A stretch of 64,000 nt of DNA from Allofournierella massiliensis (GTDB lineage Bacteria; Bacillota; Clostridia; Oscillospirales; Ruminococcaceae): the NCBI GenBank assembly GCA_021531255.1, contig JAFBIO010000004.1. One strand, given 5' to 3'. Of this stretch, positions 1,883 to 38,026 are shown piece after piece (positions within the stretch are counted from its first letter, which is position 1; each line of letters starts with the position of its first letter). Position numbers and translations under genes: made by a program. Under the pieces are notes generated by a model. The model was not told the DNA's origin and did not search any database. It saw only the letters and a program-made list of their open reading frames with translations.

Positions 1883-4800
1883 ATGAAACACAATTTGTTC
1901 AGCCGATTCCTCAGCATTGCGCTGGTTCTGGTCATGGTAGCCAGCGTTATGCCTGCCAGCATCCTGGCGGACGACGAGCTGACGGCGGATTCTTCGTCCG
2001 TGGTCAGTGAGATCGTGGAATCCGTTCTGCCCGAGGAGACTCCGGCAGCGCAGGAGCCCGCCGAGCAGGAGCCCGCCCCCGTTGCGGAGCAGACCCCTGC
2101 CCCCACGCCTGCGGCAGATGAGACTGCCCCTCTGACGGAGGAGGGCGACCAGGCTGCTGCCCCGACTCCTGAGGTGACTCCTGAGGCAACGCCGGAAGCC
2201 ACTCCTGCAGCTGGGGAAGAGGACCCGGAAAACGATGAGCAGGGCTCTGCCCCTGAACTGATCGAGCAGACGATTCAGGCGGTTGTTTATGAGGACGCTG
2301 ATTGCCTGATGCTGGCCGACTCGGGTGAGCCGGTGGATGTGATCACCCTCACTGGCAATATGCCGGAAGGCGCCGAGGCTAAGGCATACCCCGTTCAGGT
2401 GGAAATCGAGGGCGAGGTTGTTCTGGCAGCTTATGACATTACCATCTATGACGCACAGGGCAATGTGTATCAGCCGCAGGATGGCGCCATCCAGGTGAAA
2501 ATTGAGACTCCCCAGATCGCTCAGGCTCTGCAGCAGGAAAGCGAACTGAGCGTTTACCACATGGAGGACGAAACGGCTGAGCCGGAAAAGGTAGAGGAAG
2601 TAGCTGCTGTGGAAACGGCAGTGGAGTTTGCTGCGGAAAGTTTTTCCATCTACGTGGTTACGGATCCTACCCAGCACTTTACCCACACTTACATTTTTAT
2701 GGTAAATGGCGAAGAGGCCAGCCGTCAGATCCTGTCTGAGGGTGAGACTCTGCTGGAGCCGGAAACCCCGCGGTTGGACGGCTATGTTTTCAAGGGCTGG
2801 CTGCTGCCGGATGGCAGTACCTTTGCCGGTTTTAATCAGGTAGAGGGTGCGCTGGCGGAAAACAAAACCACCACGCTGACTGCCGACCTGACCCAGGGCT
2901 ACTACGTCTTTTATAAAGACGGACTGAATGGCCGAGTGATCCACACTCAGATCTATGCCCCGAACAGCAAGGTGGATTGGAGCGATGTTCCCTATACCGC
3001 TCCGGGCGAGGATGAGGCGCTGATTGGTTGGTCGCAGAACCACGAGGCAACGCAGCCGGAGGAGAATGTAACCGTAACCAACAGCGACATTATCCTCTAC
3101 CCGGTGGTAGCGAAGGCACACTGGATCACCTATTATTCTCAGGGTGGTTCGGTAGTGGAGCCCACATATGTGCTGGCCGGCCAGGCTGCGGTAGAGCCGG
3201 CTGAGCCCACGCGCCCGGGTTACACCTTTGCAGGGTGGTACACGGATGCAGAGGGCGGTACAAAGTATAACTTCGATTCTGTGGTGACGGAAGATATCAC
3301 CCTCTACGCCCAATGGACGCCCGGGCGGGTGAGCTACACCGTCGTCCACTGGTGGGAGAATGCCAACGACGAGGAATATTCTTACCATGATTCCGAGACG
3401 CTGACCGGGACGACCGGAGAACTGACCAAAGCCCAGGCCAAAAACTATGAGGTCTGGGATGAGAATATCAGACGGGAGCAGATTTCTGACTACCCATTTG
3501 TAGCAAAGGAGATTACTCAACAGACCATTGCCGGCGACGGTTCTACCATCGTCAACGTGTATTATGACCGGAAGGAGTACACCCTGACCTTTGTCGGTGA
3601 GAGCCGAGTGCTTACTTGCGGCAAGGAAGAGCATACGCATACATGGGACGATAGAAAATGGGTTCCTAGCATCATTTTGGTCTTCGGGCATTACGAATGC
3701 ACCGGCGGATGCTATGGAGAAGGTTGGCACAGAGAGAGTGAAACCAGTTGTCATATGGAGGAGCACCAGCATTCTGACTGGTGCTATAGCGATGAAGAGA
3801 CTATTCTCCACACCATCACCGCCAAATATGGTCAGAAGATTACTGATTGGCCCACCCATGGAGATGGCAATAACAACTGGGCTATGGGACCGAATGAAAG
3901 AAAGTATCTGGCCAATCTGTTGGTGATGCCCATGGGCGGCGGAACCTTGTATACATATGATGAGTCGGGGGGGCGGCATACAGCTTCTTATTATGTCGAG
4001 GCATTGAACCCGTTTGATACGGGTATTGACGGCAGCCAGGCAATCCGCGTAGGCGGAAAGTACTATGTTCTTCATCACAAGGATACCGTTGTCCTGAGTG
4101 GTCCTACAGTGGGTGAAGAGGACCGTTATGAGATCGAGGGCTTTACCTGCAATGCCGACATTGGTACAAAGGTTGGCAACAGCTATGATGGCGCTAAGTT
4201 CTACTATGACCGCAACAGCTACAACATTGTCTATTACAACGGTGGCGATATAGATCATAAGCAGGCTTATCGGTATGAGGCGGATATCTCTGGCGCAGGC
4301 AATTACACACCTACCCGGCCCGCCGGCATCCCTGACGACTATACCTTTGCAGGATGGTATAAAGATCCCCAAGGCACGGAGAAGTATGACTTTAATGGCA
4401 AGACTATGCCGGCCAATGACCTGATTCTTTATGCCAAGTGGGCTCCCGTCGTATACACTGTTTCCTTTGACCCGGCTGGCGGCCAAGCTCCGGAAGGTCA
4501 CGAAGATGCCTATAACCCTCAGGGAAATATCCTCCCTGGCTATACGGCTACAAAACCGGTTGACCCGGTGCGTGAAGGCTACGCCTTTGCTGGTTGGTAC
4601 ACGAAGGACGGTCAGCCCTTCAGCTTCACCACCCCCATTGGTAAAAACTATGAACTGGTAGCCCGTTGGGTTGGCAATGAAGCACATACCGTGACCTATG
4701 ATCCCGGCTACCGTAATGGCGTAGCTTTTGAGGATCCCAACAAGTACGCGGCTAACGCCAAGGCAAAAGTGCTGGAAGTGCCGGAGGATTGGACTGCCCA

Positions 4801-5569
4801 GGAAGGCAAGGAGTATTTCGTTTGCTGGACCACCAACAAAGATGGCACTGGCGATTCCTACTATCCCGGCGAGACCTTCCAGATGCCCAATGAAAACATT
4901 ACCCTCTACGCTCAGTGGAGCGCCGAGCGCAAAACGGTTCTGATCTATGATCACAACTACGAGGGCTCGGAGGACAAGATCATCAATAATATTGTGCCCA
5001 ACAGTGAGTATAAGATCGACTACGCGCCGAAGCGGGATGGCTACGATTTCCTGGGTTGGAGCAAGAGCCCGAAACCGGCAGAGGATGAGACGCTGCTGAA
5101 GGTGGGAGATACCATTCAGGTCGATACCCTGGAAGAGGAAACCAACATCCTGTACGCGCAGTGGCAGGCGGCTAACGGCAATTTGACTGTGACCAAAACG
5201 CTGGATAAGCTGAACCTGATGAAGGGTAATAGCGCTTCCTTTGCCTTCGAGATCAAGAACGATACCACCGGCGTGACCTATTACCATGTGTTCACTTTCA
5301 ATGATGGCGGCAGTCAGTCCTTCACCTTTAATGATCTGCCGGCAGGCAGCTACACCGTTAAGGAGCTGGATGCTGGAGGTTATGTGGCAGATGGAAATAA
5401 GAAGCAGGTAAGCGTGCCGGCAGGCGGAGAAGAAAGTATCGGGTTTACCAATACCGCCAGCGGCAACACCCCCGGCGATAACGATTATGCCAACAACCAG
5501 TTCACTTGTACCAACGGCGAGTGGGTCTGGAACCGCAATGATGACGATGCGGTTGACCCCCAGAACTGA
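1883..5569 (+). CDS. Giant secreted surface protein/adhesin with multiple Listeria-Bacteroides (Flg_new) repeats
   Basis: RBS AGGGAGG. Sec signal peptide MKHNLFSRFLSIALVLVMVASVMPASILA. Acidic, Pro/Ala/Thr-rich linker. At least five repeats of G(Y/D)xFxGW...LYAxW, the Flg_new signature. Cys/His-rich insert and beta-sandwich-like tail. No LPXTG motif or C-terminal TM. Confidence 0.9.
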   Translation: MKHNLFSRFLSIALVLVMVASVMPASILADDELTADSSSVVSEIVESVLPEETPAAQEPAEQEPAPVAEQTPAPTPAADETAPLTEEGDQAAAPTPEVTPEATPEATPAAGEEDPENDEQGSAPELIEQTIQAVVYEDADCLMLADSGEPVDVITLTGNMPEGAEAKAYPVQVEIEGEVVLAAYDITIYDAQGNVYQPQDGAIQVKIETPQIAQALQQESELSVYHMEDETAEPEKVEEVAAVETAVEFAAESFSIYVVTDPTQHFTHTYIFMVNGEEASRQILSEGETLLEPETPRLDGYVFKGWLLPDGSTFAGFNQVEGALAENKTTTLTADLTQGYYVFYKDGLNGRVIHTQIYAPNSKVDWSDVPYTAPGEDEALIGWSQNHEATQPEENVTVTNSDIILYPVVAKAHWITYYSQGGSVVEPTYVLAGQAAVEPAEPTRPGYTFAGWYTDAEGGTKYNFDSVVTEDITLYAQWTPGRVSYTVVHWWENANDEEYSYHDSETLTGTTGELTKAQAKNYEVWDENIRREQISDYPFVAKEITQQTIAGDGSTIVNVYYDRKEYTLTFVGESRVLTCGKEEHTHTWDDRKWVPSIILVFGHYECTGGCYGEGWHRESETSCHMEEHQHSDWCYSDEETILHTITAKYGQKITDWPTHGDGNNNWAMGPNERKYLANLLVMPMGGGTLYTYDESGGRHTASYYVEALNPFDTGIDGSQAIRVGGKYYVLHHKDTVVLSGPTVGEEDRYEIEGFTCNADIGTKVGNSYDGAKFYYDRNSYNIVYYNGGDIDHKQAYRYEADISGAGNYTPTRPAGIPDDYTFAGWYKDPQGTEKYDFNGKTMPANDLILYAKWAPVVYTVSFDPAGGQAPEGHEDAYNPQGNILPGYTATKPVDPVREGYAFAGWYTKDGQPFSFTTPIGKNYELVARWVGNEAHTVTYDPGYRNGVAFEDPNKYAANAKAKVLEVPEDWTAQEGKEYFVCWTTNKDGTGDSYYPGETFQMPNENITLYAQWSAERKTVLIYDHNYEGSEDKIINNIVPNSEYKIDYAPKRDGYDFLGWSKSPKPAEDETLLKVGDTIQVDTLEEETNILYAQWQAANGNLTVTKTLDKLNLMKGNSASFAFEIKNDTTGVTYYHVFTFNDGGSQSFTFNDLPAGSYTVKELDAGGYVADGNKKQVSVPAGGEESIGFTNTASGNTPGDNDYANNQFTCTNGEWVWNRNDDDAVDPQN

Positions 5570-5595
5570 GAAACCAGTAGAAAGGAGAGAGAACA

Positions 5596-6099
5596 ATGAA
5601 AAAAAATATCCTTAAAATTGCGCTTTCTGCTCTGCTGGTAATGGTGGTGCTGGTGGGCAGTACCCTGGCTTTCCTGGCTACCCAGACAGATGTGCTTGCC
5701 AATACCTTTGCAATCGTAAATATTGACACGGAAGTGGTGGAAGACCCGGAGACCGGCAGCGCGGCCAGCAAGGCGCCACAAATCACGAACACGACCAACA
5801 GCAATGTACCTGTCTATGTGCGGGCTTACGCGGTGGTAAGCACAGATAAGGATTCCCCCGTATCGGTGAGCAGCGAGAATGTTTCGTTTACCTATTCGTC
5901 TGAATGGACGAAATCTGGGGACTATTACTACTATACGAAGCCGCTGCAGCCGGGGGAGACCACCCCAGCACTCTTTAATGGCGTGAAGGTTACCGGCCTG
6001 GATGAAACGGCCCGCTTCTCTGTCTACGTCTACCACGAGAGCGTGCAGGCCAAGACTACTCTGGACACTGTTGAAGAGATCGCTGCGCTCTTTGATTAA
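5596..6099 (+). CDS. TasA/camelysin-like protein 1 with SipW-cognate signal peptide
   Basis: RBS AAAGGAGAG. The N-terminus MKKNILKIALSALLVMVVLVGSTLAFLATQTDVLANTF matches the SipW-cognate class (compare TasA GGGTFAFFSD). It carries the shared motif YYYYTKPLQPGETTPALFNGVKV. Confidence 0.85.
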   Translation: MKKNILKIALSALLVMVVLVGSTLAFLATQTDVLANTFAIVNIDTEVVEDPETGSAASKAPQITNTTNSNVPVYVRAYAVVSTDKDSPVSVSSENVSFTYSSEWTKSGDYYYYTKPLQPGETTPALFNGVKVTGLDETARFSVYVYHESVQAKTTLDTVEEIAALFD

Positions 6100-6138
6100 G
6101 CACTGCGCAATAACAGGGCAGGAGGTACTCTTCCCCGC

Positions 6139-6687
6139 ATGATCGTAAAAAGAATCTGCAATATTTTATCAACCATAATGGTACTGTTGCTGGCGGCAGT
6201 AGCGGCAGTGATCCTGGTGCCCATGCTCATGGGCTACAAGGAAATGGCTGTGCTGTCCGGCAGTATGGAGCCCACCATCCCGGTGGGGAGCATCGTCTAT
6301 GTGAAACCGCTGGACGATGCCTCCCTGCTGGAGCCGGGTGACATCTGTACTTATGTTTTGGCTGATGGCAAAACAATGGTTACCCACCGGGTGATCAGCG
6401 TGGACCCGGAAAGCCAGACCCTGGTGACCCAGGGCGACGCCAATAGTTCACCGGACGGTGCAATCAGCTTTGATCAGGTGTATGGCGAAACCCAGTTCCA
6501 TCTGCCTTATCTGGGCTACATCACCATCAACGCAAAAACTCCCAAGGGCATTATGGCTATCTGTGGGGTGTTGGTGGTAGTGGTTCTGGTCAACTTTATC
6601 CCCGCCATCATCGATGCGGATGAAGAGGACAAGAAAAAAGCTCTAAAGCAGGCAGATGAACCTTCCCCAAAAGAAGAAAATATGTAA
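6139..6687 (+). CDS. sipW: Signal peptidase I, archaeal/ER-type (SipW family) 1
   Basis: N-terminal TM, the LSGSMEPT catalytic serine box, and VTHRVIS...TQGDAN motifs homologous to B. subtilis SipW. It has a C-terminal TM plus an acidic/lysine tail. Confidence 0.85.
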   Translation: MIVKRICNILSTIMVLLLAAVAAVILVPMLMGYKEMAVLSGSMEPTIPVGSIVYVKPLDDASLLEPGDICTYVLADGKTMVTHRVISVDPESQTLVTQGDANSSPDGAISFDQVYGETQFHLPYLGYITINAKTPKGIMAICGVLVVVVLVNFIPAIIDADEEDKKKALKQADEPSPKEENM

Positions 6688-6843
6688 AACGGCTGGAAAA
6701 TTAAAAATTTTCTATAATTTTAACCGCCTTTTATCCCCGCTCTGCTAAACTGAAAATAGAAAATGTGGGGCGGGGAACTCACATCCGTTTCACAAATTTG
6801 GGCGCAGGGTGCGCTCGAAAAAACTAAAAGAGGAGATTATATC

Positions 6844-7515
6844 ATGAAAAAGAAGAACGTACTTATGACGGCTCTGTCTCTGACTCTGGTGGGCGTTATT
6901 GCTGCGGGCAGCACCCTGGCCTATCTCACCTCTCAGAGCGATACCCTGACCAACACCTTCACCGTGGGCGAAGGGTACGGCACGGAGCAGGATCCTGGCT
7001 TCTACCTGGATGAGACTGCCGCAAAGGTAGAAGTGGTTGAAGGGAAGACTGTCACCACCAACCCCACTTCGAAGAGTCAGTTCGGTCGTACCGATGAAGG
7101 CAATACCTATGCTGCCATGAGCATTGGCGATACCATCTATAAGGATCCTACCTTCCATCTGGATGAAGGCCCCGAGAGCTATATCTTTGCAATAGTTGAA
7201 GGCGTAGACGCTATGGAAGCTGATGGCGTTGGCTTCGACTTCGATGGCTGGAGCACTAACTGGGTAAAGGTTGACGGTTCCAAAGGCCGTGATGGCTATT
7301 ACCGTTACACCAGCACGGTAACCGCCGGCACCGAGATTGCCCCCCTGTTCACCAACGTTTCTCTGCCCGCAGCCCTGAAGGCACTGCCTGATAACAGAGA
7401 TCTGACCAACATCACCATCAAGGGTGTTGCCATTCAGGCTGCGAACCTGGCTACCTGGCAAGACGCTTGGGCTGCCCTGGCAGAGGATGCTCCTGGTTTC
7501 CGTCCTGCTGCCTGA
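6844..7515 (+). CDS. TasA/camelysin-like protein 2 with SipW-cognate signal peptide
   Basis: RBS AAAGAGGAG. N-terminus MKKKNVLMTALSLTLVGVIAAGSTLAYLTSQSDTLTNTF. Shared motif YYRYTSTVTAGTEIAPLFTNVSLP. Confidence 0.85.
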   Translation: MKKKNVLMTALSLTLVGVIAAGSTLAYLTSQSDTLTNTFTVGEGYGTEQDPGFYLDETAAKVEVVEGKTVTTNPTSKSQFGRTDEGNTYAAMSIGDTIYKDPTFHLDEGPESYIFAIVEGVDAMEADGVGFDFDGWSTNWVKVDGSKGRDGYYRYTSTVTAGTEIAPLFTNVSLPAALKALPDNRDLTNITIKGVAIQAANLATWQDAWAALAEDAPGFRPAA

Positions 7516-7615
7516 TCAGACAGGAAAACAGTTGTTTTTCTTGTAACCTGATTTAGGCGTGGATCCCGGCAAGGAATATCCCTGCTTTACAAATCCCGAT
7601 TTGTGAGGTAATAAA

Positions 7616-8269
7616 ATGAAGAAAAAAAATATTTTAACGGCTGTGCTTAGCCTTTGCTTGGTCGCAGTCATTACGGTGGGCGCCACTTTGGCCTATTTCA
7701 CCGATAAGAGCGAAGCGGTACATAACACCTTCACCACCGGCAACATTAAAATTGCCGTGGTAGATGAGACCAATCCCACTGAGGGCCAGGTAGGCGGCGT
7801 GAAGGATCCTGAGACCGGCGATATCGCTTATGGTACCGTGACTCCCATCATGCCCGGCGACGTGATCAGCAAGCAGGTAAGCGTATCTGTGAATTCCGAC
7901 AGCCAGCCCGCCTGGGTGGCTCTGAAACTCACTACGAACGTTTCTCTGTCCCCCGACTCCAAGCTGACTGTGAATGAGGCCAATGCCGCTGTTAAGGCTC
8001 TGATCGATCAGGAAGTGGCCAAGCAGAGAGCTTGGGTTGAAGATGAAAATAACAAAGGCGTCTATTACTATCGCGACATCGTCCAGCCCGGCGATACTGC
8101 TGCTTCCATCTTCAACACTCTCACCATTCCTGGCGAAGCCTGGGGCAACGATTATGCTGGTATGACCTTCACCATTGATGTGAAAGCTGCTGCTGTGCAG
8201 GCCGCAAACATCGATACCATTGAGGATGCCAAGCCCGAGCTGAGCAAGCTGTTCATCGAGATCAGCTAA
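7616..8269 (+). CDS. TasA/camelysin-like protein 3 with SipW-cognate signal peptide
   Basis: N-terminus MKKKNILTAVLSLCLVAVITVGATLAYFTDKSEAVHNTF is a near-textbook SipW-cognate signal. Shared motif YYYRDIVQPGDTAASIFNTLTIP. Confidence 0.85.
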   Translation: MKKKNILTAVLSLCLVAVITVGATLAYFTDKSEAVHNTFTTGNIKIAVVDETNPTEGQVGGVKDPETGDIAYGTVTPIMPGDVISKQVSVSVNSDSQPAWVALKLTTNVSLSPDSKLTVNEANAAVKALIDQEVAKQRAWVEDENNKGVYYYRDIVQPGDTAASIFNTLTIPGEAWGNDYAGMTFTIDVKAAAVQAANIDTIEDAKPELSKLFIEIS

Positions 8270-8369
8270 CTACTAAATGGCTCCAGAAGCAACCAAAACC
8301 ATATTCAGGCATTTGTGGTAAGGCTTCCTTGTGATTTGTAGAAAATGATCAGGAAAGGAGGGCGGCCGG

Positions 8370-8867
8370 TTGAAAGCAAGGCTGCTAAGCGCTGCGGCTG
8401 CGGCGCTGATTCTGGCCCTCATATTGGCCGCCCTCCCTCTTACCATTCCCAAGCTTTGGGGCTATCAGATCTACAATGTCCTCACCAGCAGTATGACTCC
8501 CGCCTTGCCTCCCGGCAGCGCGATTTATGTCAAAGCTTGTGACGCCCAGGACTTAGAGCCCGGCGACATTATTACCTTTACTCTAAGCAGCAGCACCACT
8601 CTGGTGGAGACCCACCGCGTGGTCGAAAACGACTGGCAGGCCCGGCAGCTCGTTACAAAAGGCGATGCAAATGCCGACGTGGATATCGACCCCGTGGCAT
8701 ATGACCGGGTGGTGGGCAAAGTGGTCTTCAGCATACCAGTTTTAGGCGCCGCTTCCCAGATGATGCGTTCAAGAGGCGGCATCGCGGTTTGCATAGCAAT
8801 ATTTGCCCTGGCATTTATTCTATGGACACTTGCAGACAAGATGAAAAAAAGGGAGAGTTTCAAGTGA
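8370..8867 (+). CDS. sipW: Signal peptidase I, archaeal/ER-type (SipW family) 2
   Basis: TTG start with RBS AAAGGAGG. N-terminal TM, the LTSSMTP serine box, and VETHRVV...TKGDAN motifs. It has a C-terminal TM. Confidence 0.8.
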   Translation: MKARLLSAAAAALILALILAALPLTIPKLWGYQIYNVLTSSMTPALPPGSAIYVKACDAQDLEPGDIITFTLSSSTTLVETHRVVENDWQARQLVTKGDANADVDIDPVAYDRVVGKVVFSIPVLGAASQMMRSRGGIAVCIAIFALAFILWTLADKMKKRESFK

Positions 8868-9553
8868 AAAAGAGATTTTTGCTGATGGGCGCGGCAGCCG
8901 TTCTGGTTATGGCTACAGTGGTAGGCGGCTCCCTGGCCGCAGACCAGGTGAGCGGCGATCAGGCGGTGCAGGCACCTCTTGCCGCAACGAACCTGAGTAT
9001 TGCGCTGGACGGTGCGGCGGAATATCCCATCGAAAGCGCCTGGATGCCCGGTAATACCATTGAACTGAATGGCGAGACCGGCATCTATTCTGTGGAAAAC
9101 ACCGGTACGGGGGATAGTTACATCCGCCTTACCTTATACACATATTGGAGCGACGAAGACGGCGTCAATACCGATTTCGTAGCCACTAATGATCAGGGCG
9201 AGGTTTATCAGCATGTAGCCCAGGTGGAAGTCCCCGCTGAGATGCTGGGCGATGGCTGGGTCAAGGCCGAAGGTGGTCTGCTGGGCCAGTCGGTAGACGG
9301 CAAGCAGGTGTTCTACTACACCAAGCCCTTGGCCACCGGCGAAAGCACCGGCGCTTTGCTCAAGGGGGTAAAACTTCCTGCTTCGCTGAGCAATCAGTAT
9401 GCGGGGCAGCAGATCACCCTGCGGGCAGAAGCGGACGGCGTACAGTTCATCGGCGCGGATTACAACGAGGTGAACGCCGACGGTATCCTTTCTGCCTGGG
9501 GTGTGAAAGCTACCCTGGGTGCGGACGGCAGCATTGCCAAGATCGAAAATTAA
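8864..9553 (+). CDS. TasA/camelysin-like protein 4 (more divergent signal peptide)
   Basis: GTG start overlapping the sipW2 stop. N-terminus VKKRFLLMGAAAVLVMATVVGGSLAADQ. Shared motif FYYTKPLATGESTGALLKGVKLP, paralogous to the other three. Confidence 0.7.
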   Translation: MKKRFLLMGAAAVLVMATVVGGSLAADQVSGDQAVQAPLAATNLSIALDGAAEYPIESAWMPGNTIELNGETGIYSVENTGTGDSYIRLTLYTYWSDEDGVNTDFVATNDQGEVYQHVAQVEVPAEMLGDGWVKAEGGLLGQSVDGKQVFYYTKPLATGESTGALLKGVKLPASLSNQYAGQQITLRAEADGVQFIGADYNEVNADGILSAWGVKATLGADGSIAKIEN

Positions 9554-9581
9554 GCGACAGCGGAAAGACAGGTAAAAGACT

Positions 9582-10313
9582 ATGATGAAAAGAATCAGTG
9601 CCATCGTGCTTGCCCTGAGCGTTTCCGTCGTGCTGGCCCTTGGCTGCTTTGCCGCTGACACCACCGGCACAGCCACCTATGATGGAAGCAAACTCAATGT
9701 GGAAGGCGATATGTCCGGTTTTTCCAGCATGGTGCCCGGGCTGCCCCAGAGCGGCTCTGTCCAGCTGAAAAATGCTTCGGATAAAACCGCCAATTTCTAC
9801 ATGAATACCGATGTGGTCAGTACCCTGATCACCAATTTGGAAGGCGCCACCCAGACCGCCTACACCGTCAGCCTCAGCTGCGGCGATACCGTGTTGTACG
9901 GTTATGACCCGGCTACCGGCGCCACCGGCAGCCTGGTGGGCGGCATGGATACCCAGGGCCTGGAAGAATTGAACGGGGACCTGGAAGGCTACCTGCTGGT
10001 GGCTACCCTGAAACCCGGCGAGACTGCGGATGTGAACTTCTCCATCACCCCGGATGCCCGCAGCACCACCGATTACTACCAGTTCAGTGAAGGTCTGGTG
10101 GAATTCCGCTTCCAGGTTCGGGATGTGGAACCCATTGTGAAGAAAAACACCATCACCAAAGAGGGCGAGGATGTGGTCGTTACCCAGACCCGCTATGTGG
10201 TGGAGGCCGCCAAAACCGGCGATACCAACCTGATCTTTGTGGCTGCCGGCCTGCTGGCCCTGGCTCTGGTGATCCTGGTTGTAACCAAGAAAAAGAAGAA
10301 GGAGGATCAGTGA
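9582..10313 (+). CDS. Cell-wall-anchored surface protein, predicted sortase-B substrate (noncanonical sorting signal AAKTG)
   Basis: Sec signal peptide ...ALGCFA/AD. The C-terminus has AAKTGDTN followed by the hydrophobic segment LIFVAAGLLALALVILVV and a KKKKKEDQ tail. It contains an LKPGETADVNF motif reminiscent of the TasA-like paralogs. Confidence 0.75.
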   Translation: MMKRISAIVLALSVSVVLALGCFAADTTGTATYDGSKLNVEGDMSGFSSMVPGLPQSGSVQLKNASDKTANFYMNTDVVSTLITNLEGATQTAYTVSLSCGDTVLYGYDPATGATGSLVGGMDTQGLEELNGDLEGYLLVATLKPGETADVNFSITPDARSTTDYYQFSEGLVEFRFQVRDVEPIVKKNTITKEGEDVVVTQTRYVVEAAKTGDTNLIFVAAGLLALALVILVVTKKKKKEDQ

Positions 10314-10314
10314 G

Positions 10315-11280
10315 ATGCGTAAGAGCTTTGTAAAACGCCTTGCCTGCGCGGCGCTGGCCCTCTCCATGGCCATGACCATGGCCATCCCCGCCTTTGCCGA
10401 CGAGCAGGGCCGGGTGGTTACCTTCCGCCCCGGCATGGAAGGCTCTGTCTTCAGCGAAGAGTATATTGCGTACATCGAGAACACCGGCTATACATACGAA
10501 GTCAGCCAGGCGACCGGCAGCATTTCGGTGCTGGTGCCCATCGGCAGCCCTGCCCCCAACGCGCCGGATTATACCGATATCATCCCGGGGGATTCCCGCT
10601 ATCAGGTCATTGACCCGGCCGAGGGGTATCAGCAGAATGGCCAGCTGAGCAGCGAGCATGTGACCCAGTACGCCATGAAGCGCCAGGGTGAGGATTACGC
10701 CTACACCGTGGAATACCGGGATCGGGATACCGGCGAGGAAGTAGCTCCCGCTCAGCGCGGCACTTCCAGCGCTGTGACCCTGACCTTCTATGCCCCGGCC
10801 ATTGCCAACTACCGGGCAGAGGCCGAATCGGCTACCCTGACCATTACGGCCGAGGGCCCCAACCTTCTGACCTTCTGGTATGTGGCAGTGCCCATCACCG
10901 AGACCAAGACCGTTACCGCTGATGGGAATACGATCTACCGCTACAATGATGTCACCGTCTACAGCACCGCAGGCGTTGCAGGCGGCGGTGCTGGCGGCGG
11001 CGCAGGAGCCGGCGCAGGAGCCGGCGCTGGTGGCGGAGAAGGCGGCGGTGAGGTCATCAACCCCGATGAGACTCCTCTCACCGGCGGCGAGGCCACCGAG
11101 CCTGAGACCTCCGGTCCCACTGAGGAAATCAACCCGGATGAAACTCCCCAGACCAACGCTCCCGAAGAGGAGAGCAGCGGCCTGAGCCCCATGGTGGGTG
11201 TGGGCATCGGCCTGGTTTTTCTGATCCTGGCGGTGGCCTTCTTCCTCAAGCGCAAAAAGGATAGCGCCGCAGAAGAATAA
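10315..11280 (+). CDS. Cell-wall-anchored surface protein, predicted sortase-B substrate (tandem NPDETPLTGG / NPDETPQTN motifs)
   Basis: Sec signal peptide and a Gly/Ala-rich low-complexity linker. The C-terminus has INPDETPLTGG...INPDETPQTNAPEEE followed by TM GVGIGLVFLILAVAFF and an LKRKK tail. Confidence 0.75.
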   Translation: MRKSFVKRLACAALALSMAMTMAIPAFADEQGRVVTFRPGMEGSVFSEEYIAYIENTGYTYEVSQATGSISVLVPIGSPAPNAPDYTDIIPGDSRYQVIDPAEGYQQNGQLSSEHVTQYAMKRQGEDYAYTVEYRDRDTGEEVAPAQRGTSSAVTLTFYAPAIANYRAEAESATLTITAEGPNLLTFWYVAVPITETKTVTADGNTIYRYNDVTVYSTAGVAGGGAGGGAGAGAGAGAGGGEGGGEVINPDETPLTGGEATEPETSGPTEEINPDETPQTNAPEEESSGLSPMVGVGIGLVFLILAVAFFLKRKKDSAAEE

Positions 11281-11306
11281 GTGGTATCATAACAAGTGAA
11301 TCACGC

Positions 11307-11339
11307 AAAGGAGCTGCCCTTGCGGCAGCTCCTTTTTTA
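11307..11339 (+). terminator. Rho-independent terminator
   Basis: aaaggagctgccc-ttgc-gggcagctcc hairpin followed by TTTTTT. Confidence 0.75.
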
Positions 11340-11367
11340 TTCTCACCAAGCATAAAGGGAAAGAAAA

Positions 11368-12150
11368 ATGGAAGAACGCAAGAAAAAGCGCTTTTCGGCG
11401 TTGAGTCTGATCCGAATCATCGCCCTGGTAGTGGCCCTGGTATCGGCCGGTGCCATCCTCTGGCAGCTGTATATCTACCGGCAGGGCGAAGAAACCTATG
11501 AAGAATTGCGCCAGCAATACACCACAACGGCGGAAGAATCGGCCCAGAGCCAGGCGAATGAGCAGGCCGAGGAACCTTTCCAGCTGCTGGATGTGGATTT
11601 TGAGGCCCTGCAGGCCCAGAACCCGGATGTGGTGGGCTGGATCGACTTTGACGCCATCGAGCTGAGCTACCCGGTGGTCTGGTCCGGGGACAACGAAAAG
11701 TATCTGCGCACCATGTGGAACGGAACCCCCAACACGGCGGGCAGCGTATTTTTGGAGGGTGCCAATACCGGCTGGCAAGACCTGCATGTGATTCTGTACG
11801 GCCACAACATGCGCAACCGCAGTATGTTCGGCAACCTGCGGGAATACCGGGATGTGGAGTTCTATAAAAAGAACGGCGGATGGTTCACCCTCTATACCCC
11901 CGATGATGGGATCTGGCGCTACCAGATCTTTGGGGCAAAGCAGGTGAGCAGCGACGATCCTTTGTACACCGTGGGCTTTTCGGTGGGGGATACCTATACG
12001 GAATTTCTCAAGCAGATGTGCCAGGGGCGCTTTTATGAGACAGGCGTGACCCTCTATTCCGAGGACCATGTGATGACCCTGAGCACCTGTGTGGGCGACG
12101 ATGCCCAGCGCTTGGTGATCATGGCCAGAAGAGCCGAGCAGGTGGGATGA
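11368..12150 (+). CDS. srtB: Class B sortase
   Basis: N-terminal TM anchor. LYGHNM...His and TLSTC catalytic Cys motifs. Arg near the C-terminus. The fold-family signature is typical of SrtB. Confidence 0.9.
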   Translation: MEERKKKRFSALSLIRIIALVVALVSAGAILWQLYIYRQGEETYEELRQQYTTTAEESAQSQANEQAEEPFQLLDVDFEALQAQNPDVVGWIDFDAIELSYPVVWSGDNEKYLRTMWNGTPNTAGSVFLEGANTGWQDLHVILYGHNMRNRSMFGNLREYRDVEFYKKNGGWFTLYTPDDGIWRYQIFGAKQVSSDDPLYTVGFSVGDTYTEFLKQMCQGRFYETGVTLYSEDHVMTLSTCVGDDAQRLVIMARRAEQVG

Positions 12151-13821: not shown

Positions 13822-15183
13822 TTACAGGGGCAGCTCCCGGGCAATTCTGGCCGAGACGCTGCGGATCCGATAGCGGGCGGCGGGCAGTTTCAAGGTAAAG
13901 GTGCCCCGGCCTTTCTGTTTGCTGAAAGGATTCTGACGAAAGACCGTCCGGGTAAGGTCGGTGAAAACACAGACCTCATAGCGGGTGAGCCGGCGGGTAT
14001 AGCACAGGGTCAGGCTGCTGCCGATACGGCCAACCCCCTCCCGCCGGTAGCCCTCGGCGGCCTGGAGCCCCAGACAGCCAAAGAAGAAAAGGCCGAATAA
14101 AAACAAAAAGGTGTAGGCCGGCCAGAGGGTGCGGCTGAGGATGAGCAGCAGCAGGCAGAGCGCCCCGCCCCCTGCCGGGAACCAGAAAAAGGAGGGCAGG
14201 CTGCGCCCCCGGACTGATTCATACCGGCTGGGCGGCAGATACAGCCCGGGCATCAGGCGGCGAAGGCTGAACCAGTCGCCTTTCCGGCACAAAAACAGGG
14301 GCGATTCCCGGCCCTGATCATGGCCGGCCGCCAGATATACCGGGTAGCGGCGCAGCAGCCGCGCAGCGGGCGTCACCCGAACCTGGCAGCTGGTGACGGC
14401 CGAAAGGCGTACCCGCCGTTCGGTAAGGCGGAGCAGCCCGTACCGGGCCACCAGAATGGTATCCCCCCGGGCTACCCGCAGATTGGCCCGGCAGAGGAAA
14501 TTATACCCCAGGCTGAACACATAGAAGAGAAAGGCCAGGGTGACCAGCCAGGCCAGGCCGGCGGGCAGGACACGGTTTACCAGGGCCTCGGCCTGCAGCA
14601 GTCCCTGCCAGGCAGTCTGGGTGAGGAAGGGGTCCAGCTCGTACAGGGTCTTCCGGGCGCTGTACACAGCCATCAGGCCGGTAAGGGTCACATTGAAGCC
14701 CAGCACCAGCATGCTCAGCCGGTCCGCCCCCACCGGGGCAAAAACCGGATTTTCCAGTTCATCAGGCATCAGGGCCCGGGCCAGGGCCTCGGCGTCCCGG
14801 CGGGGCAGAAAAAGGGTGATGCTGCCGGGCAGGCTTCGCTGGGTATATACCGTAAGGCGGGAAGCCCCCATCAGACGGAAGAAAAAAGGCCGCGTCACCA
14901 CGGCAGAGGCGAGCTCCGGGATCCGCACCTGCTGGCGCAGATGAAACAGGATCCCCAGCTGGATGGTGAGCAGATCGCCTTCCAACCGCCAGCCGGAGAG
15001 CTGCCAGGCCGCAAAGCTGAAGGCCAGCAGCAGCAAAAGAATCAGGGCGTCCTGCTGAAGGGCCAGAACCAGGCTGGCCCAATCAAAATGCAGCAGAGCC
15101 CGGAGCATGGGCAGCAGGCAGAGGGCCAGGCCTTTGCGCACGATGTGCAGGCTGTACAGGGGGTGAAACCGGCGGAACTTCAT
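13822..15183 (-). CDS. YdbT-like membrane protein with bacterial PH (bPH_2) domains
   Basis: The internal Met MKFRRFHPLY is the likely start. Its ATG overlaps the stop of the upstream YdbS-like gene (ATGA), giving a ydbS-ydbT-like pair. The longer annotated ORF is an upstream extension lacking a stop. Confidence 0.65.
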   Translation of the reverse strand: MKFRRFHPLYSLHIVRKGLALCLLPMLRALLHFDWASLVLALQQDALILLLLLAFSFAAWQLSGWRLEGDLLTIQLGILFHLRQQVRIPELASAVVTRPFFFRLMGASRLTVYTQRSLPGSITLFLPRRDAEALARALMPDELENPVFAPVGADRLSMLVLGFNVTLTGLMAVYSARKTLYELDPFLTQTAWQGLLQAEALVNRVLPAGLAWLVTLAFLFYVFSLGYNFLCRANLRVARGDTILVARYGLLRLTERRVRLSAVTSCQVRVTPAARLLRRYPVYLAAGHDQGRESPLFLCRKGDWFSLRRLMPGLYLPPSRYESVRGRSLPSFFWFPAGGGALCLLLLILSRTLWPAYTFLFLFGLFFFGCLGLQAAEGYRREGVGRIGSSLTLCYTRRLTRYEVCVFTDLTRTVFRQNPFSKQKGRGTFTLKLPAARYRIRSVSARIARELPL

Positions 15184-15593
15184 GGCTGCCCCCCCTGCAG
15201 CAGGCAGGTGATGGCGTCGGCATCTGCCATGGAAAGAGCCGGCAGCAGGCAGGCCAGGCCTCCCCCTGCGTAGAGCAGGAGGGATTGGCAGCCCATCGCC
15301 CGGGAAAGGGGAGAGGAATACCGCACCACCCCGCACAAAGCCCGCAGAGGGATTCGTTTGATACAGGGGAAAACGAACCCTGAACGGATGCACAGTTCGG
15401 TTTCATCGATTAAAATCTCCAGCCCGGGCAGGTAGCACAGCAGGCAATAGAGAAAAAACAGGAAAGCCAATACCCAGGCCAATATCCCCATGAAAGGGGA
15501 AAACCAGAAAAAAACGCCGCCCAGAAGGGTGCCGCCCAGAAAAAGCCAGAAGCCGGCCAGGCGGATGCCGGCGGACGAAAGACGAATGACCAT
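15180..15593 (-). CDS. YdbS-like small membrane protein with PH (bPH_2) domain
   Basis: 137 aa with two TMs then a PH-like domain. Its stop overlaps the start of the adjacent YdbT-like gene. Confidence 0.65.
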   Translation of the reverse strand: MVIRLSSAGIRLAGFWLFLGGTLLGGVFFWFSPFMGILAWVLAFLFFLYCLLCYLPGLEILIDETELCIRSGFVFPCIKRIPLRALCGVVRYSSPLSRAMGCQSLLLYAGGGLACLLPALSMADADAITCLLQGGQP

Positions 15594-15863
15594 AAACCCT
15601 CCTCAGGCGGCCCGCGCCGGAAAAATCCCCGGGGCCCAAGGGATATACAAAAATATTATAAAGGGTTCGGGGCAAAAGGGCAATCCCTACCCCGGGCAAA
15701 GCCGTTCTGTTCCGGGCTGTTTTATGCTATAATAAAATGGGGTACGCCCAAATGGGAAAAGCCCAGGGCGCGCGGCCCCTGTTTTTCATGATATCCTTTT
15801 TCAAAGCGAAAAAAACAAATCCTGTCCCGGCATTGGCCGGGGAGAGAAAAAAGGGGAGAACCT

Positions 15864-16733
15864 ATGCTTGAGATTTTAAAAGCGGTCCTGATGGGCGTGG
15901 TGGAAGGCATCACCGAATGGCTGCCCATCTCCAGCACCGGCCATATGATTCTGGTAGAGCAGGTGGTGCAGTTTGAGTTCAGCGAAGCCTTTGTAAGTAT
16001 GTTCCGGGTGGTGATCCAGCTGGGCGCCATCCTGGCGGTGGTGCTGCTGTATTTTGACCGGCTCTGGCCCTTTAAAAAATTGCCGGCCGGCACCGAGGAG
16101 GGCGGCACGCTGCCCCAGAAGATCCTGCTGCGGTGCGACAAGGAAAAATGGATTTTGTGGGCCAAGATCCTGGTGGCCAGCCTGCCCGCCGCCATCATTG
16201 GCCTGCCGCTGGATGACTGGCTGGATGAACACCTGTACAACGCGCCGGTAGTGGCCGGAATGCTCATTGTCTATGGCGTTCTGTTCCTGGTCATTGAGGA
16301 TCGGCGCCGCCGGCCCCATATCGTAAAGATGGAACAGCTCACCTTCCGAGATGCGGTCATCATTGGGATATGGCAGGTGCTGGCCCTGATCCCGGGCACC
16401 AGCCGCAGCGGCGCCACCATCGTGGGCGGCCTGCTGCTGGGCACTTCCCGCCCCCTGGCAGCTCAGTTCACCTTTTATCTGGCCATCCCGGTCATGTTCG
16501 GGGCCAGCGGGCTGAAACTGGTGAAGTATCTGGCCGAGGGCAACAGCTTTACCGGGATGGAAGTAGGCGCCCTGCTGGTGGGCATGCTGGTGGCCTTCCT
16601 GGTCAGCGTGGCGGCCATCCGCTTTTTGATGAATTATGTCAAACGCCACAGCTTTAAGGTGTTTGGCTGGTACCGGATCTTCCTGGGGACACTGGTGCTC
16701 TCGGTGGCGTTCTGGGAAAAAGTGCTGGGCTAA
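15864..16733 (+). CDS. uppP: Undecaprenyl-diphosphate phosphatase
   Basis: BacA/UppP signature EWLPISSTGH and PGTSRSGATI. Eight TMs. Confidence 0.9.
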   Translation: MLEILKAVLMGVVEGITEWLPISSTGHMILVEQVVQFEFSEAFVSMFRVVIQLGAILAVVLLYFDRLWPFKKLPAGTEEGGTLPQKILLRCDKEKWILWAKILVASLPAAIIGLPLDDWLDEHLYNAPVVAGMLIVYGVLFLVIEDRRRRPHIVKMEQLTFRDAVIIGIWQVLALIPGTSRSGATIVGGLLLGTSRPLAAQFTFYLAIPVMFGASGLKLVKYLAEGNSFTGMEVGALLVGMLVAFLVSVAAIRFLMNYVKRHSFKVFGWYRIFLGTLVLSVAFWEKVLG

Positions 16734-35785: not shown

Positions 35786-38005
35786 TCAGTTCAGGCAGAG
35801 CAGCAGATATTCCCCAAAATCCAGCTGTTGGCTGCGCAGGGAGATCAGGGCTTCCAGGTCCAGGGATGGGTAGCTCTCCCGCTCCCGGGGACCTACCACG
35901 ATATAATCCACCCCATAAGCTTCGATCACGGCCCGGGCGGCCTCTTCGCCATCCTCATAAAGGGCGCGGACCTCGTCGCCCCGGGCATCCACCCCGGCCA
36001 GGTCGCTGCGCCACAGCCATTCATGGGTGTGCCAGCCCACGATGGTGGCCCGGCCGGTGGCCATGCTGATCCGGCAGTACTGGGTGTAGCTGGCCCCCGG
36101 GGCCTCCACCACCACCGCGTCCGGGGCGGCGTTCTCGTCGATCCACCGGATCAGGGCCGCCTCGTTGGGGGCCTCCTGCTCAATAAAGGCCAGCCCATCC
36201 AGCCCCTGGTACTCCCGCCCCCAGTAGGTGCTCTTCAGGGCAAGGGGGGTATAGCAGAGGGGGATGGCCAGGCAGCAAACCAGGGCCAGACGGCGCAGCA
36301 GTCGTCGGGGTCGCCGCTGGCCGGCCGCCGCGGCCCACCAGCGGGCCAGGCTGTAGCCCATGGCTAGGCCAAAGAGGATGAAGGCCTGGTAGGTGAGCTT
36401 GAACATGGTGTTGGCCCGGGGCGCCGAGGGGTATATATCCTTCAGATAGAGCAGCTCCGGCCCGATCAGCAGCCCCAGGCCGCACAGGTAGCAGAAAAAC
36501 ACAAACAGGTCGGGCAGATCAAAGCTGTTCAGCCAGCGGGAAAAACCGTTCTCCCGGCCAGGCAGCGCCCCCCGGGCGGGAACTTCGTAGAGGACCTGCC
36601 AGCCTTCCTCTTCCTCCAGGGGGCCGAAGGGCCAGCGGCCCAGCCGGCGGCGTTCGGTGAAAAACAGGAAGATCAGGTAGGCCGCAAAACAGCCCAGAGG
36701 CAGATACCACAGGGCCAGGAACTGGGGCAGCGGGCTGGATTGGGCCACCAGACCAATGCCGGCGCTCATGGAATCAAAGGAGAGGCTGAAGGGCAGGGAA
36801 GAGAGGGAGCGCAGGGCCAGCAGGAGGGCCAGCCGCAGGGCGCCCTCTGCCCAGAAGGACTTCTGACCGGGCGCGCAGCGCATCCCCGCCGCCCAGAAAA
36901 CGAAAAAGACCGAGACGATGGTGTAGATGGCAAAATCCCAGTAGTTGGTCATGGCCATGACCCCGAGGAAAAAGCCGCAGAGCCAGAAGGCCGGGTCCGC
37001 CAGAGATTCCCACAGGGGGGTCTGCCGGCTGGCATTCTGCCGGGCCCGGCTCAGCCAGACAAGGCTCAGAGCCAGGAAGAGCAGCACAAAGCAGATATCC
37101 AGCACATGGGCGTGCAGGTCGCTGACAATAAAGGAATAGAAGGGGAATTCATGGATGGTGTTGTCGGTGCTGCCCTCATAGCAGTTGATGAATCGGGTGG
37201 CGTCCGGATACCAGTAATTTTCGGCGTAATCCACCAAGCCCAGCCGGTTTAAAAAGGGCAGCAGCACCCCGAACAGAAAGGCGTGGCCATTGCCGCCCAC
37301 CGCCACCAGAAGGGAACAGGCCGCCCCGCCGGCGGCGCAGCCCCGGCCCTTAAAGCCCTTGAGCCCCAGCAGGTCATAGCCCAGGGCGCCGGCCAGGCTC
37401 AGGGTCAGTGCAAAGGTGGTGGCCATCATCAGGTTATAGCCCACGGCGCTGCCCACCCCCGCCAGCCGGCAGAGGAAAGCGGTGGCAAAATGGCCGTAAT
37501 AATAGTAGTTGATCCCCTTACCGGCATACCACATGTCGGCGGCGGGCATCCAGTCGCTGTTCAGGATGCTGGCCACAAAGCCGTGATCCATAAATTTTTC
37601 CAGATCCCGCAGGTCCGGGTTGGTGGCCCGCAGCCAGGCCCAGAAGGCCAGGGCGGCCAGAAAAATAACCTCCTCCACCAGGGCGCGCCGCCAGAAAGTA
37701 CCGCTGCCCAGGGCCGTCTGCCAGACAGACCCAGCCCTGCGCCGGCGAAGGAAAGCAGGGAACCAGCAGGCCAGAGCCGCCGCCCCCAAAAAGAGCCAGC
37801 AGCCCCATACCCGGAAGGGGACGAGATGAAAGGAAGAGGAGGTAAAGGAAAGCCAGGAGCAAAGGGCCAGCCCCAACACCTTGGAAAAGGCCCAGCCTTT
37901 ATCCCGCAGCCCTCCAAAGACCGAGAGGGTCAGGGGCAGCAGGGCCATGCTCAGCAGCAGAAGAACGGCCCACCAGCGGGCCAGCGCCAGGAAATCGGAA
38001 ATCAT
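35786..38005 (-). CDS. DUF2298 'chlor_Arch_YYY' integral membrane protein (putative GT-C-like glycosyltransferase)
   Basis: 739 aa, polytopic N-terminal half with the diagnostic GINYYYYGHF motif, then a large extracytoplasmic C-terminal domain. Confidence 0.75.
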   Translation of the reverse strand: MISDFLALARWWAVLLLLSMALLPLTLSVFGGLRDKGWAFSKVLGLALCSWLSFTSSSFHLVPFRVWGCWLFLGAAALACWFPAFLRRRRAGSVWQTALGSGTFWRRALVEEVIFLAALAFWAWLRATNPDLRDLEKFMDHGFVASILNSDWMPAADMWYAGKGINYYYYGHFATAFLCRLAGVGSAVGYNLMMATTFALTLSLAGALGYDLLGLKGFKGRGCAAGGAACSLLVAVGGNGHAFLFGVLLPFLNRLGLVDYAENYWYPDATRFINCYEGSTDNTIHEFPFYSFIVSDLHAHVLDICFVLLFLALSLVWLSRARQNASRQTPLWESLADPAFWLCGFFLGVMAMTNYWDFAIYTIVSVFFVFWAAGMRCAPGQKSFWAEGALRLALLLALRSLSSLPFSLSFDSMSAGIGLVAQSSPLPQFLALWYLPLGCFAAYLIFLFFTERRRLGRWPFGPLEEEEGWQVLYEVPARGALPGRENGFSRWLNSFDLPDLFVFFCYLCGLGLLIGPELLYLKDIYPSAPRANTMFKLTYQAFILFGLAMGYSLARWWAAAAGQRRPRRLLRRLALVCCLAIPLCYTPLALKSTYWGREYQGLDGLAFIEQEAPNEAALIRWIDENAAPDAVVVEAPGASYTQYCRISMATGRATIVGWHTHEWLWRSDLAGVDARGDEVRALYEDGEEAARAVIEAYGVDYIVVGPRERESYPSLDLEALISLRSQQLDFGEYLLLCLN

Positions 38006-38026
38006 GGAAGATCCTTTCGTGCAAGA

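Follow-up and report, generated by a model that had tools for sequence, protein, structure and literature searches.

A candidate proline-free sorting signal beside a class B sortase in a TasA/BsaA-type fibre operon of Allofournierella massiliensis

We analysed a 64 kb stretch of DNA from Allofournierella massiliensis (contig JAFBIO010000004.1; hereafter, the window), which holds an operon that, as we read it, encodes a SipW-dependent TasA/BsaA-type surface fibre system with a dedicated class B sortase. Two genes placed between the fibre subunits and the sortase encode the proteins here called p8 and p9, and each of them ends with a motif, a hydrophobic segment and a basic tail, as an earlier note on this DNA had described. 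We found that p8 carries the core AAKTGD, a noncanonical signal that lacks proline and belongs to a large family in which the T-G-D part is kept, and that p9 carries two acidic units, INPDETPLTGG and INPDETPQTN, which are repeated in its orthologues and vary in the residues that a sortase would be expected to read. The interpretation that we favour, and consider rather probable, is that the class B sortase uses the proline-free signal of p8, which would be the base of the fibre at the wall, and that the units of p9 belong to a linker in a protein that is held in the membrane.

The sorting signal of p8 and the adjoining sortase

The N-terminus of p8, MMKRISAIVLALSVSVVLALGCFAA, is an ordinary signal peptide of the A-x-A type. 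At the other end the protein reads TQTRYVVEAAKTGDTN (...VVEAAKTGDTN), followed by LIFVAAGLLALALVILVVT and then by KKKKKEDQ, so that AAKTG sits 31-35 residues from the C-terminus, inside the 17-45 range, with the canonical Leu and Pro absent. The protein passes the curated hidden Markov models (HMMs) for anchors, scoring 25.2 bits on TIGR01167 (cut-off 15.9) and 22.4 bits on PF00746 (cut-off 20). In an alignment of 18 p8 homologues with a mean column identity of 49%, T212, G213 and D214 are invariant, and 51/51 distinct intact homologue tails present xx[KQRVI]TG[DE], for example AAKTGD, SAKTGD, GVQTGD and SVVTGD. Since its gene also travels with a class B sortase, the proposal of the earlier note that AAKTG is a sorting signal without LPXTG is supported. 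Two other possibilities for these proteins were considered and rejected. The string LALGC of p8 fits a lipobox, but its Cys is not conserved in the family, which speaks against a lipoprotein; and no invariant Lys was found in the mature p8 or p9, as would be needed for pilins polymerised through Lys isopeptide bonds.

A profile of p8 was searched over 1.84 billion cluster representatives (50%-identity clusters) and retrieved 1,044 clusters at E <= 1e-3, mostly from gut Clostridia, which makes this a large and unnamed family. Residues were counted in the best 148 of these clusters, in 134 of which xxxTG[DE] precedes a hydrophobic stretch. Among these 134 representatives, position 2 of the signal is V in 92, P in 15 (11%), A in 12 and I in 9; position 3 is K in 68, Q in 22, R in 14 and N in 11; and position 6 is D in 130 and E in 4. 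These counts point to x-V-K-T-G-D as the signal of the family; AAKTGD belongs to a minority, and Pro at position 2 is exceptional.

The sortase encoded at 11368-12150 scores 151.9 bits on the class B model TIGR03064, slightly under the equivalog cut-off of 153.75, and 49.9 bits on the Pfam Sortase family (cut-off 26.6). Its His-Cys-Arg triad and the TLxTC signature are present, and H146 (YGHNM), C241 (TLSTC) and R248 are invariant in the alignment. The 14 best matches in the PDB are all SrtB, from B. anthracis, C. difficile, C. perfringens, Listeria and S. aureus, with B. anthracis SrtB at the top (1rz2, E 3.8e-28); for 5gyj and 4ux7, both from C. difficile, E is about 1e-25. The enzyme scores as class B, as the earlier note had it. 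Proteins encoded beside related class B sortases end with LPKTGD, SPKTGD/E, GAKTGD, SVKTGD or VPQTGD. A T-G-D whose spacing to the membrane segment is constant across more than 100 divergent clusters is not what is expected of a plain membrane anchor, and p8 is very likely, as judged from these comparisons, a substrate of the neighbouring class B sortase.

Regarding the fold of p8, its AlphaFold2 (AF2) model (pLDDT 68.7) is a jelly-roll sandwich which matches the TasA fibre structure 8aur. When the profile of the p8 family was compared by hhalign with a pooled profile of the TasA-like paralogues of the operon (T1 to T4, numbered in gene order), a probability of 91.7% was obtained (E 7.9e-7, 151 columns). 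Only the pooled profile pointed to this kinship: no match was found by hhalign against the single T3 and T4 sequences or in a search of PDB sequences, and p8 has neither a TIGR04088 or TIGR04090 match nor a SipW-type signal peptide. In our reading p8 is a distant member of the TasA/BsaA-like subunits, with a signal peptide of the ordinary kind and, in addition, a sorting signal.

From the synteny, the conservation and the homology to characterised sortases we infer how the system may work. The SipW peptidases would process the TasA-like subunits, which would assemble by donor-strand exchange. In turn, p8 would be exported by Sec and held in the membrane by its C-terminal hydrophobic segment and Lys tail until Cys241 of the sortase cleaves AAKTGD at the predicted scissile bond, between Thr212 and Gly213, and transfers the protein to peptidoglycan. 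With its putative TasA-like fold, p8 would then be a covalently wall-bound base carrying a non-covalent fibre; T4, always adjoining p8, would be the likeliest connector to the fibre, and p9 a Mub-like partner tethered to the membrane. A more specific form of this proposal, which we advance only tentatively, describes a hybrid organelle in which a donor-strand TasA/BsaA fibre stands on p8 as covalent base through x-V-K-T-G-D, a new specificity class of clostridial SrtB, next to p9 as tethered partner and possibly as second substrate through its TP(L/Q)x units.

The repeated units of p9

The C-terminal region of p9 reads GGGEV-INPDETPLTGG-EATEPETSGPTEE-INPDETPQTN-APEEESSGLSP, continues with MVGVGIGLVFLILAVAFFL and finishes with KRKKDSAAEE. 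The two units are a repeat at the DNA level too (34 nucleotides, 79% identical, 72 nucleotides apart). In the AF2 model (mean pLDDT 64.7) the protein has two folded domains (33-101 and 119-191), a disordered region that holds both units (208-297) and a helix (295-319). The folded part matched by Foldseek the MUB repeat 3i57 (E 8.1e-4, probability 0.97) and the MucBP domain of Spr1345 (3nz3, E 1.9e-3), and one orthologue (P0084) has a weak precomputed match to PF06458. Full-length p9 has no match at E <= 0.01 to curated families, anchor families included, among Pfam and NCBIfam-type HMMs. We read p9, on the basis of the model, as a putative Mub/MucBP-like adhesin on a long disordered stalk.

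The duplication of the unit, reported in the earlier note, holds beyond this genome: among 38 distinct intact orthologues of p9, 34 carry the unit twice and 3 carry it three times, and only that of locus L047 lacks it (L numbers stand for related genome loci). The acidic unit is a common one, repeated in 37/38 orthologues and found upstream of anchors in other proteins. What varies is the part of the unit that would matter to a sortase. Its fourth residue is Ala in 58/78 units and Thr in 15/78, 14 of these in close relatives of the window and 1 in P0057, and the residue that follows may be G, N, E, A, S or D. The units nearest the membrane segment read TPQAN, VPQAG, TPQAE, VPLAS/VPLAA, TPLAE, VPQSS or TPEGA elsewhere, so that the place of Thr is taken by Ala, Ser or Gly in every other lineage sampled (at least nine); only the Ile at -5 and the Pro are invariant across orthologues (I272, P254, P278). 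The p8 proteins of the same loci always keep T-G-[DE], as AAKTGD, TVKTGD, AVPTGD, GVQTGD, TVKTGE, AVKTGD or SVKTGD. One sortase lineage can not be constraining both.

In other proteins the acidic-[TV]P[LQ]A unit lies directly upstream of a genuine xxKTGD or LPKTGD: IIEDGPVPLAVLPKTGDE, DDDVPLGELPKTGD, IVDQIVPLAGAVKTGD and EERVPLGAVPTGD. Both forms occur together in L086, where p8 ends with EERVPLGAVPTGD and p9 with EEEVPLASGQEPFAN. The same arrangement is described by the NCBIfam model NF033073, the "doubled motif LPXTG anchor", in which a linker rich in Gly leads to acidic-VPLA units, one or two in number, and these to a hydrophobic segment with a basic tail; the tail of p9 shares it, but lacks the LPKTGD core after the units. 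Used as positive controls, the tails from L057 and L050 scored 66.3 and 51.1 bits on this model (cut-off 48), two tails of p9 orthologues 14.9 and 18.1 bits, and the tail of p9 from the window had no match. Some p9 orthologues read TPQA-NLPGEN where their relatives have VPLA-VLPKTGDE, which we read as a possible decayed LPKTGD core. From these alignments we conclude that the units of p9 would be a repeated pre-anchor or linker element and not sortase pentapeptides. The suggestion in the earlier note that they are a remnant of repeat expansion was closer to this than its other suggestion, of two alternative cleavage sites. Lacking the xxKTGD core, p9 is most likely retained in the membrane by the helix at its C-terminus. 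At some point the acidic unit alone seemed to be a sortase signal, because two p8-like proteins of 521 residues (L018, L022) end with EDSELPLSSG and a membrane segment; both proved to be p8 joined in frame to p9, with an internal SVKTGD signal, and the idea was rejected.

Another explanation gives the acidic-[TV]P[LQ]A units a different signalling role: they may be where the sortase or some other envelope enzyme docks, or sites for a shedding protease, and p9 would be a regulated or releasable adhesin. The repeated PPEP-1 sites that precede the anchor in CD2831 and CD3246 of C. difficile are a model for the latter. The invariance of Ile and Pro agrees with this explanation, as do the one to three copies of the acidic unit that precede the anchors of many clostridial surface proteins unrelated to each other, and the NCBI curators included the unit in their doubled-motif anchor domain. 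But the operon has no gene for a candidate protease, and the unit lies within a disordered linker of biased composition, where it could be a mere spacer to span the wall. Literature searches gave only irrelevant matches for VPLAG/TPLAG-type strings and no paper on the doubled-motif model, and no published function was found for the unit. We consider a role of this kind rather unlikely.

The explanation offered in the earlier note, that p8 and p9 are both substrates of the class B sortase and that p9 has alternative sites, TPLTG-G and an NPQTN-type TPQT-N, fares worse and appears to us improbable for p9. It gains from the fact that both motifs have P-x-T followed by G or N in the lineage of the window, from the hydrophobic segment and basic tail of p9, from the position of its gene immediately 5' of the sortase, and from the wide conservation of the p8-p9 pairing. 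The tail alone also comes close to TIGR01167 (15.8 bits vs 15.9); nevertheless, this match covers the membrane segment and tail only (profile positions 13-34) and excludes the motif. TPLTG, at 65-69 residues from the C-terminus, is beyond the usual range of sorting motifs, and TPQTN, at 41-45 residues, has an acidic spacer of 11 residues between it and the membrane segment. The likeness of TPQTN to NPQTN is real in 4/5 residues in the lineage of the window, but is confined to close relatives, and we read it as coincidental; moreover, NPQTN was not cleaved by SrtB of C. difficile (PMC4155245). Finally, it is very improbable that the AAKTGD tail of p8 is an ordinary membrane anchor of coincidental resemblance while the true substrates of the sortase lie elsewhere in the genome: the visible part of the genome is 64 kb only, some related sortases have no p8 nearby (L007, L009, L010) and some p8 genes no sortase, but the tail passes the anchor HMMs, its T-G-D keeps a fixed spacing, and the window holds no other candidate substrate.

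Several points weigh against the interpretation that we favour, namely p8 as a sortase substrate at the base of the fibre and p9 as a membrane protein with a linker. Pro at position 2 is near-universal in characterised sorting motifs. In the lineage of the window p9 does carry T-G and T-N after P-x, and motifs of the LPXAG type exist in staphylococci, so that some cleavage of p9 is conceivable. The sortase gene is not next to p8 in L088, L090 and L092, a terminator-like hairpin parts it from p9 in the window, and p9 is a conserved partner of p8. Also, in Coriobacteriia loci the gene right after a related class B sortase (at L016:10751-12799 and L023:10679-12685) encodes a protein of about 670 residues. 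Its tail shows a single acidic-TPLASG unit ahead of a membrane segment and basic residues, but no xxKTG core, and is a possible counter-example to our reading that the unit is not a sortase signal. The nearest published x-V-Q-T-G motif, NVQTG of CbpA, was left uncleaved by C. difficile SrtB in vitro (PMC4155245).

The operon and its relatives

The genes from 1883 to 12150, all on the + strand, encode an adhesin, four TasA-like subunits, two SipW peptidases, p8, p9 and the class B sortase (Table 1). T1 to T4 are mutually paralogous and all have SipW-type signal peptides; their matches to TIGR04090, the BsaA family, are in every case below threshold. No second sortase was found in the window, and p8 is its only open reading frame (ORF) with a tail of the sortase type. 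The sortase gene, which lies beyond the hairpin, may be transcribed separately or less. The adhesin scores 198.7 bits on the Pfam family Flg_new and 22.4 bits on SpaA, slightly under the cut-off of 23.1, and is presumed to be the tip or cargo of the fibre. It has no sorting signal or membrane anchor despite its SpaA-like domain, which is typical of sortase pilins, and its place is taken in related operons by giants with VWA, SpaA or PA14 domains.

Table 1. Coordinates of the features of the fibre operon in the window
Feature	Position	Strand	Remarks
Large secreted adhesin, 1228 aa	1883..5569	+	Signal peptide, Listeria-Bacteroides (Flg_new) repeats, SpaA-like C-terminal domain
T1, TasA/BsaA-like subunit	5596..6099	+	SipW-type signal peptide; TIGR04090 31.7 bits (under cut-off); paralogue of T2-T4
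SipW-type (archaeal-type) signal peptidase I, copy 1	6139..6687	+	TIGR02228 99.3 bits (cut-off 51.85)
T2, TasA/BsaA-like subunit	6844..7515	+	SipW-type signal peptide; TIGR04088 18.2 bits (cut-off 19); paralogue of T1, T3
T3, TasA/camelysin-like subunit	7616..8269	+	TIGR04088 36.1 bits (cut-off 19); Pfam Peptidase_M73 24.9 (cut-off 22.5); TIGR04090 36.4
SipW-type signal peptidase I, copy 2	8370..8867	+	TIGR02228 78.4 bits (cut-off 51.85)
T4, TasA/BsaA-like subunit	8864..9553	+	TIGR04090 28.4 bits
p8, 243 aa	9582..10313	+	Sorting signal AAKTGD, hydrophobic segment, basic tail
AAKTGD, putative recognition core of p8	10206..10223	+	aa 209-214, 30-35 residues from C-terminus
p8 hydrophobic segment LIFVAAGLLALALVILVVT (19 residues) and basic tail KKKKKEDQ	10230..10310	+	
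p9, 321 aa	10315..11280	+	Signal peptide, Mub/MucBP-like two-domain module, Gly/Ala-rich acidic disordered linker, C-terminal membrane anchor
p9 unit 1, INPDETPLTGG	11056..11088	+	aa 248-258, 64-74 residues from C-terminus
p9 unit 2, INPDETPQTN, nearest the membrane segment	11128..11157	+	aa 272-281, 41-50 residues from C-terminus
p9 transmembrane segment MVGVGIGLVFLILAVAFFL and tail KRKKDSAAEE	11191..11277	+	
Terminator-like hairpin in the p9/sortase gap	11307..11335	+	12 pairs and T-run; pattern match only
Class B sortase	11368..12150	+	N-terminal membrane segment, His146 (YGHNM), Cys241 (TLSTC), Arg248

Metagenome-assembled genomes from Oscillospirales and Lachnospiraceae show the same gene order (L001-L006, L008, L011, L015). 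In one clade (L002, L003, L006, L008, L011) p9 is missing and p8 directly precedes the sortase. T4 lies directly 5' of p8 in L001-L006, L015, L047, L088 and L090-L092, and the triad T4-p8-p9 persists in the more distant genomes L088 and L090-L092 even without an adjoining sortase. Fusions of p8 and p9 in frame, 520-620 residues long, were found in 12/148 p8 cluster representatives, about 8% (members are P0099, P0126, P0137, P0154, P0173 and P0232, as well as L018:11484-13049 and L022:11480-13048). In them the complete signal of p8 (xVKTGD, membrane segment and basic stretch) is internal and the signal peptide of p9 comes directly after it, which implies that the two proteins are tightly coupled in function and that their joint precursor has three segments in the membrane.

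Another kind of fusion was observed in 13/80 related loci (L024, L059, L060, L064, L065, L066, L070, L071, L074, L077, L079, L081, L082), where a single ORF of 1630-1700 residues, such as L060:5864-10804, joins a signal peptide, a giant adhesin with its own sorting signal and an in-frame class B sortase. The signal, for example KTVPQTGDD, is followed by a membrane segment and RKGRSRE, and then by the membrane segment and catalytic domain of the sortase; L024 has APKMGD at the position of the motif. Such an ORF is a natural substrate-sortase fusion, which could process itself. Regulators with a BTAD domain flank the fibre operon in L002 (11879-13138), L003 (11869-13128), L005 (359-1378), L090 (9588-10823) and L092 (232-1476), and none was seen beside the operon of the window. 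Upstream of the latter, at 1307-1825, there is a conserved small ORF of 172 residues without signal peptide. Its identity is 70% with the ORF so placed in L001 and 25% (E 3e-14) with one that adjoins the distant L092 locus. The AT skew is unusually high (0.28-0.31) at 14001-16000 and 36001-40000 compared with the remaining window.

Known systems and the proposed attachment of the fibre

The sortase described here is, like SrtB of C. difficile, a clostridial class B enzyme found with a K-T-G-D core that lies directly ahead of a hydrophobic segment and a basic tail. The (S/P)PKTGD motif of C. difficile is the nearest known signal, and SrtB of that species cuts (S/P)PKTG-D at the T-G bond (PMC4155245, PMC5569036); its substrates CD2537 and CD3392 have the native contexts PVPPKTGDS and SDSPKTGDN, and LPETG, NPQTN and NVQTG were not cleaved in vitro (PMC4155245). 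In contrast, the two residues before K-T-G-D are Ser/Pro-Pro in C. difficile and Ala-Ala in p8, while the wider family mostly has x-Val there; in addition, the sortase of the window is dedicated to a fibre operon, whereas C. difficile SrtB is a single housekeeping enzyme. The S. aureus SrtB/IsdC system shares with the window the class of the sortase, and TPQTN of p9 has four of the five residues of NPQTN, but the window has no NEAT or haem-uptake context and an acidic spacer precedes the membrane segment of p9.

The nearest system is the bsa operon of C. perfringens, with SipW-dependent subunits of the TasA family, several paralogues and an adjoining class B sortase. Donor-strand exchange assembly was shown for TasA and BsaA, and genes for LPxTG proteins, SpaA, signal peptidase and sortase are frequent in BsaA/TasA operons (PMC11580942). 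In most strains the bsa operon encodes a BsaB-like protein with LPXTG, and its authors raise the speculative idea that this protein anchors the fibre once SrtB has joined it to peptidoglycan (PMC11580942); in strain 13, srtB was dispensable for BsaA polymerisation (PMC7395162). Unlike the bsa operon, that of the window combines a pair of SipW genes and four subunits with a giant adhesin, and has the Mub-like p9 as an additional member; the motif of p8 has no Leu-Pro, the anchoring being putative in both systems. In the TapA-SipW-TasA system of B. subtilis there is also a SipW-processed fibre of TasA fold and a minor accessory protein proposed for attachment to the cell. However, TapA, a fibre anchor or nucleator, is not a sortase substrate, while the attachment proposed for p8 would be covalent, through its sorting signal.

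That a fibre of the TasA type may be anchored by a sortase had already been proposed speculatively, and p8 is recognised as an anchor protein by standard HMMs. What is new is the loss of Pro across the signal of the p8 family and the size of this family; a proline-free consensus, a conserved p8-p9 pairing and an architecture of two SipW peptidases and four subunits distinguish the system from those known. In practical terms, searches with the patterns LPXTG or (S/P)PXTG miss proteins with x-V-K-T-G-D, since Pro is absent, and the repeated acidic-VPLA/TPLxG units that precede anchors are a source of false positives in predictions of surface proteomes. TasA/BsaA fibres are major structures of biofilm formation and adhesion in Firmicutes, and the p8 family is a candidate for a covalent base, made by a sortase, through which such fibres would be fixed to the cell.

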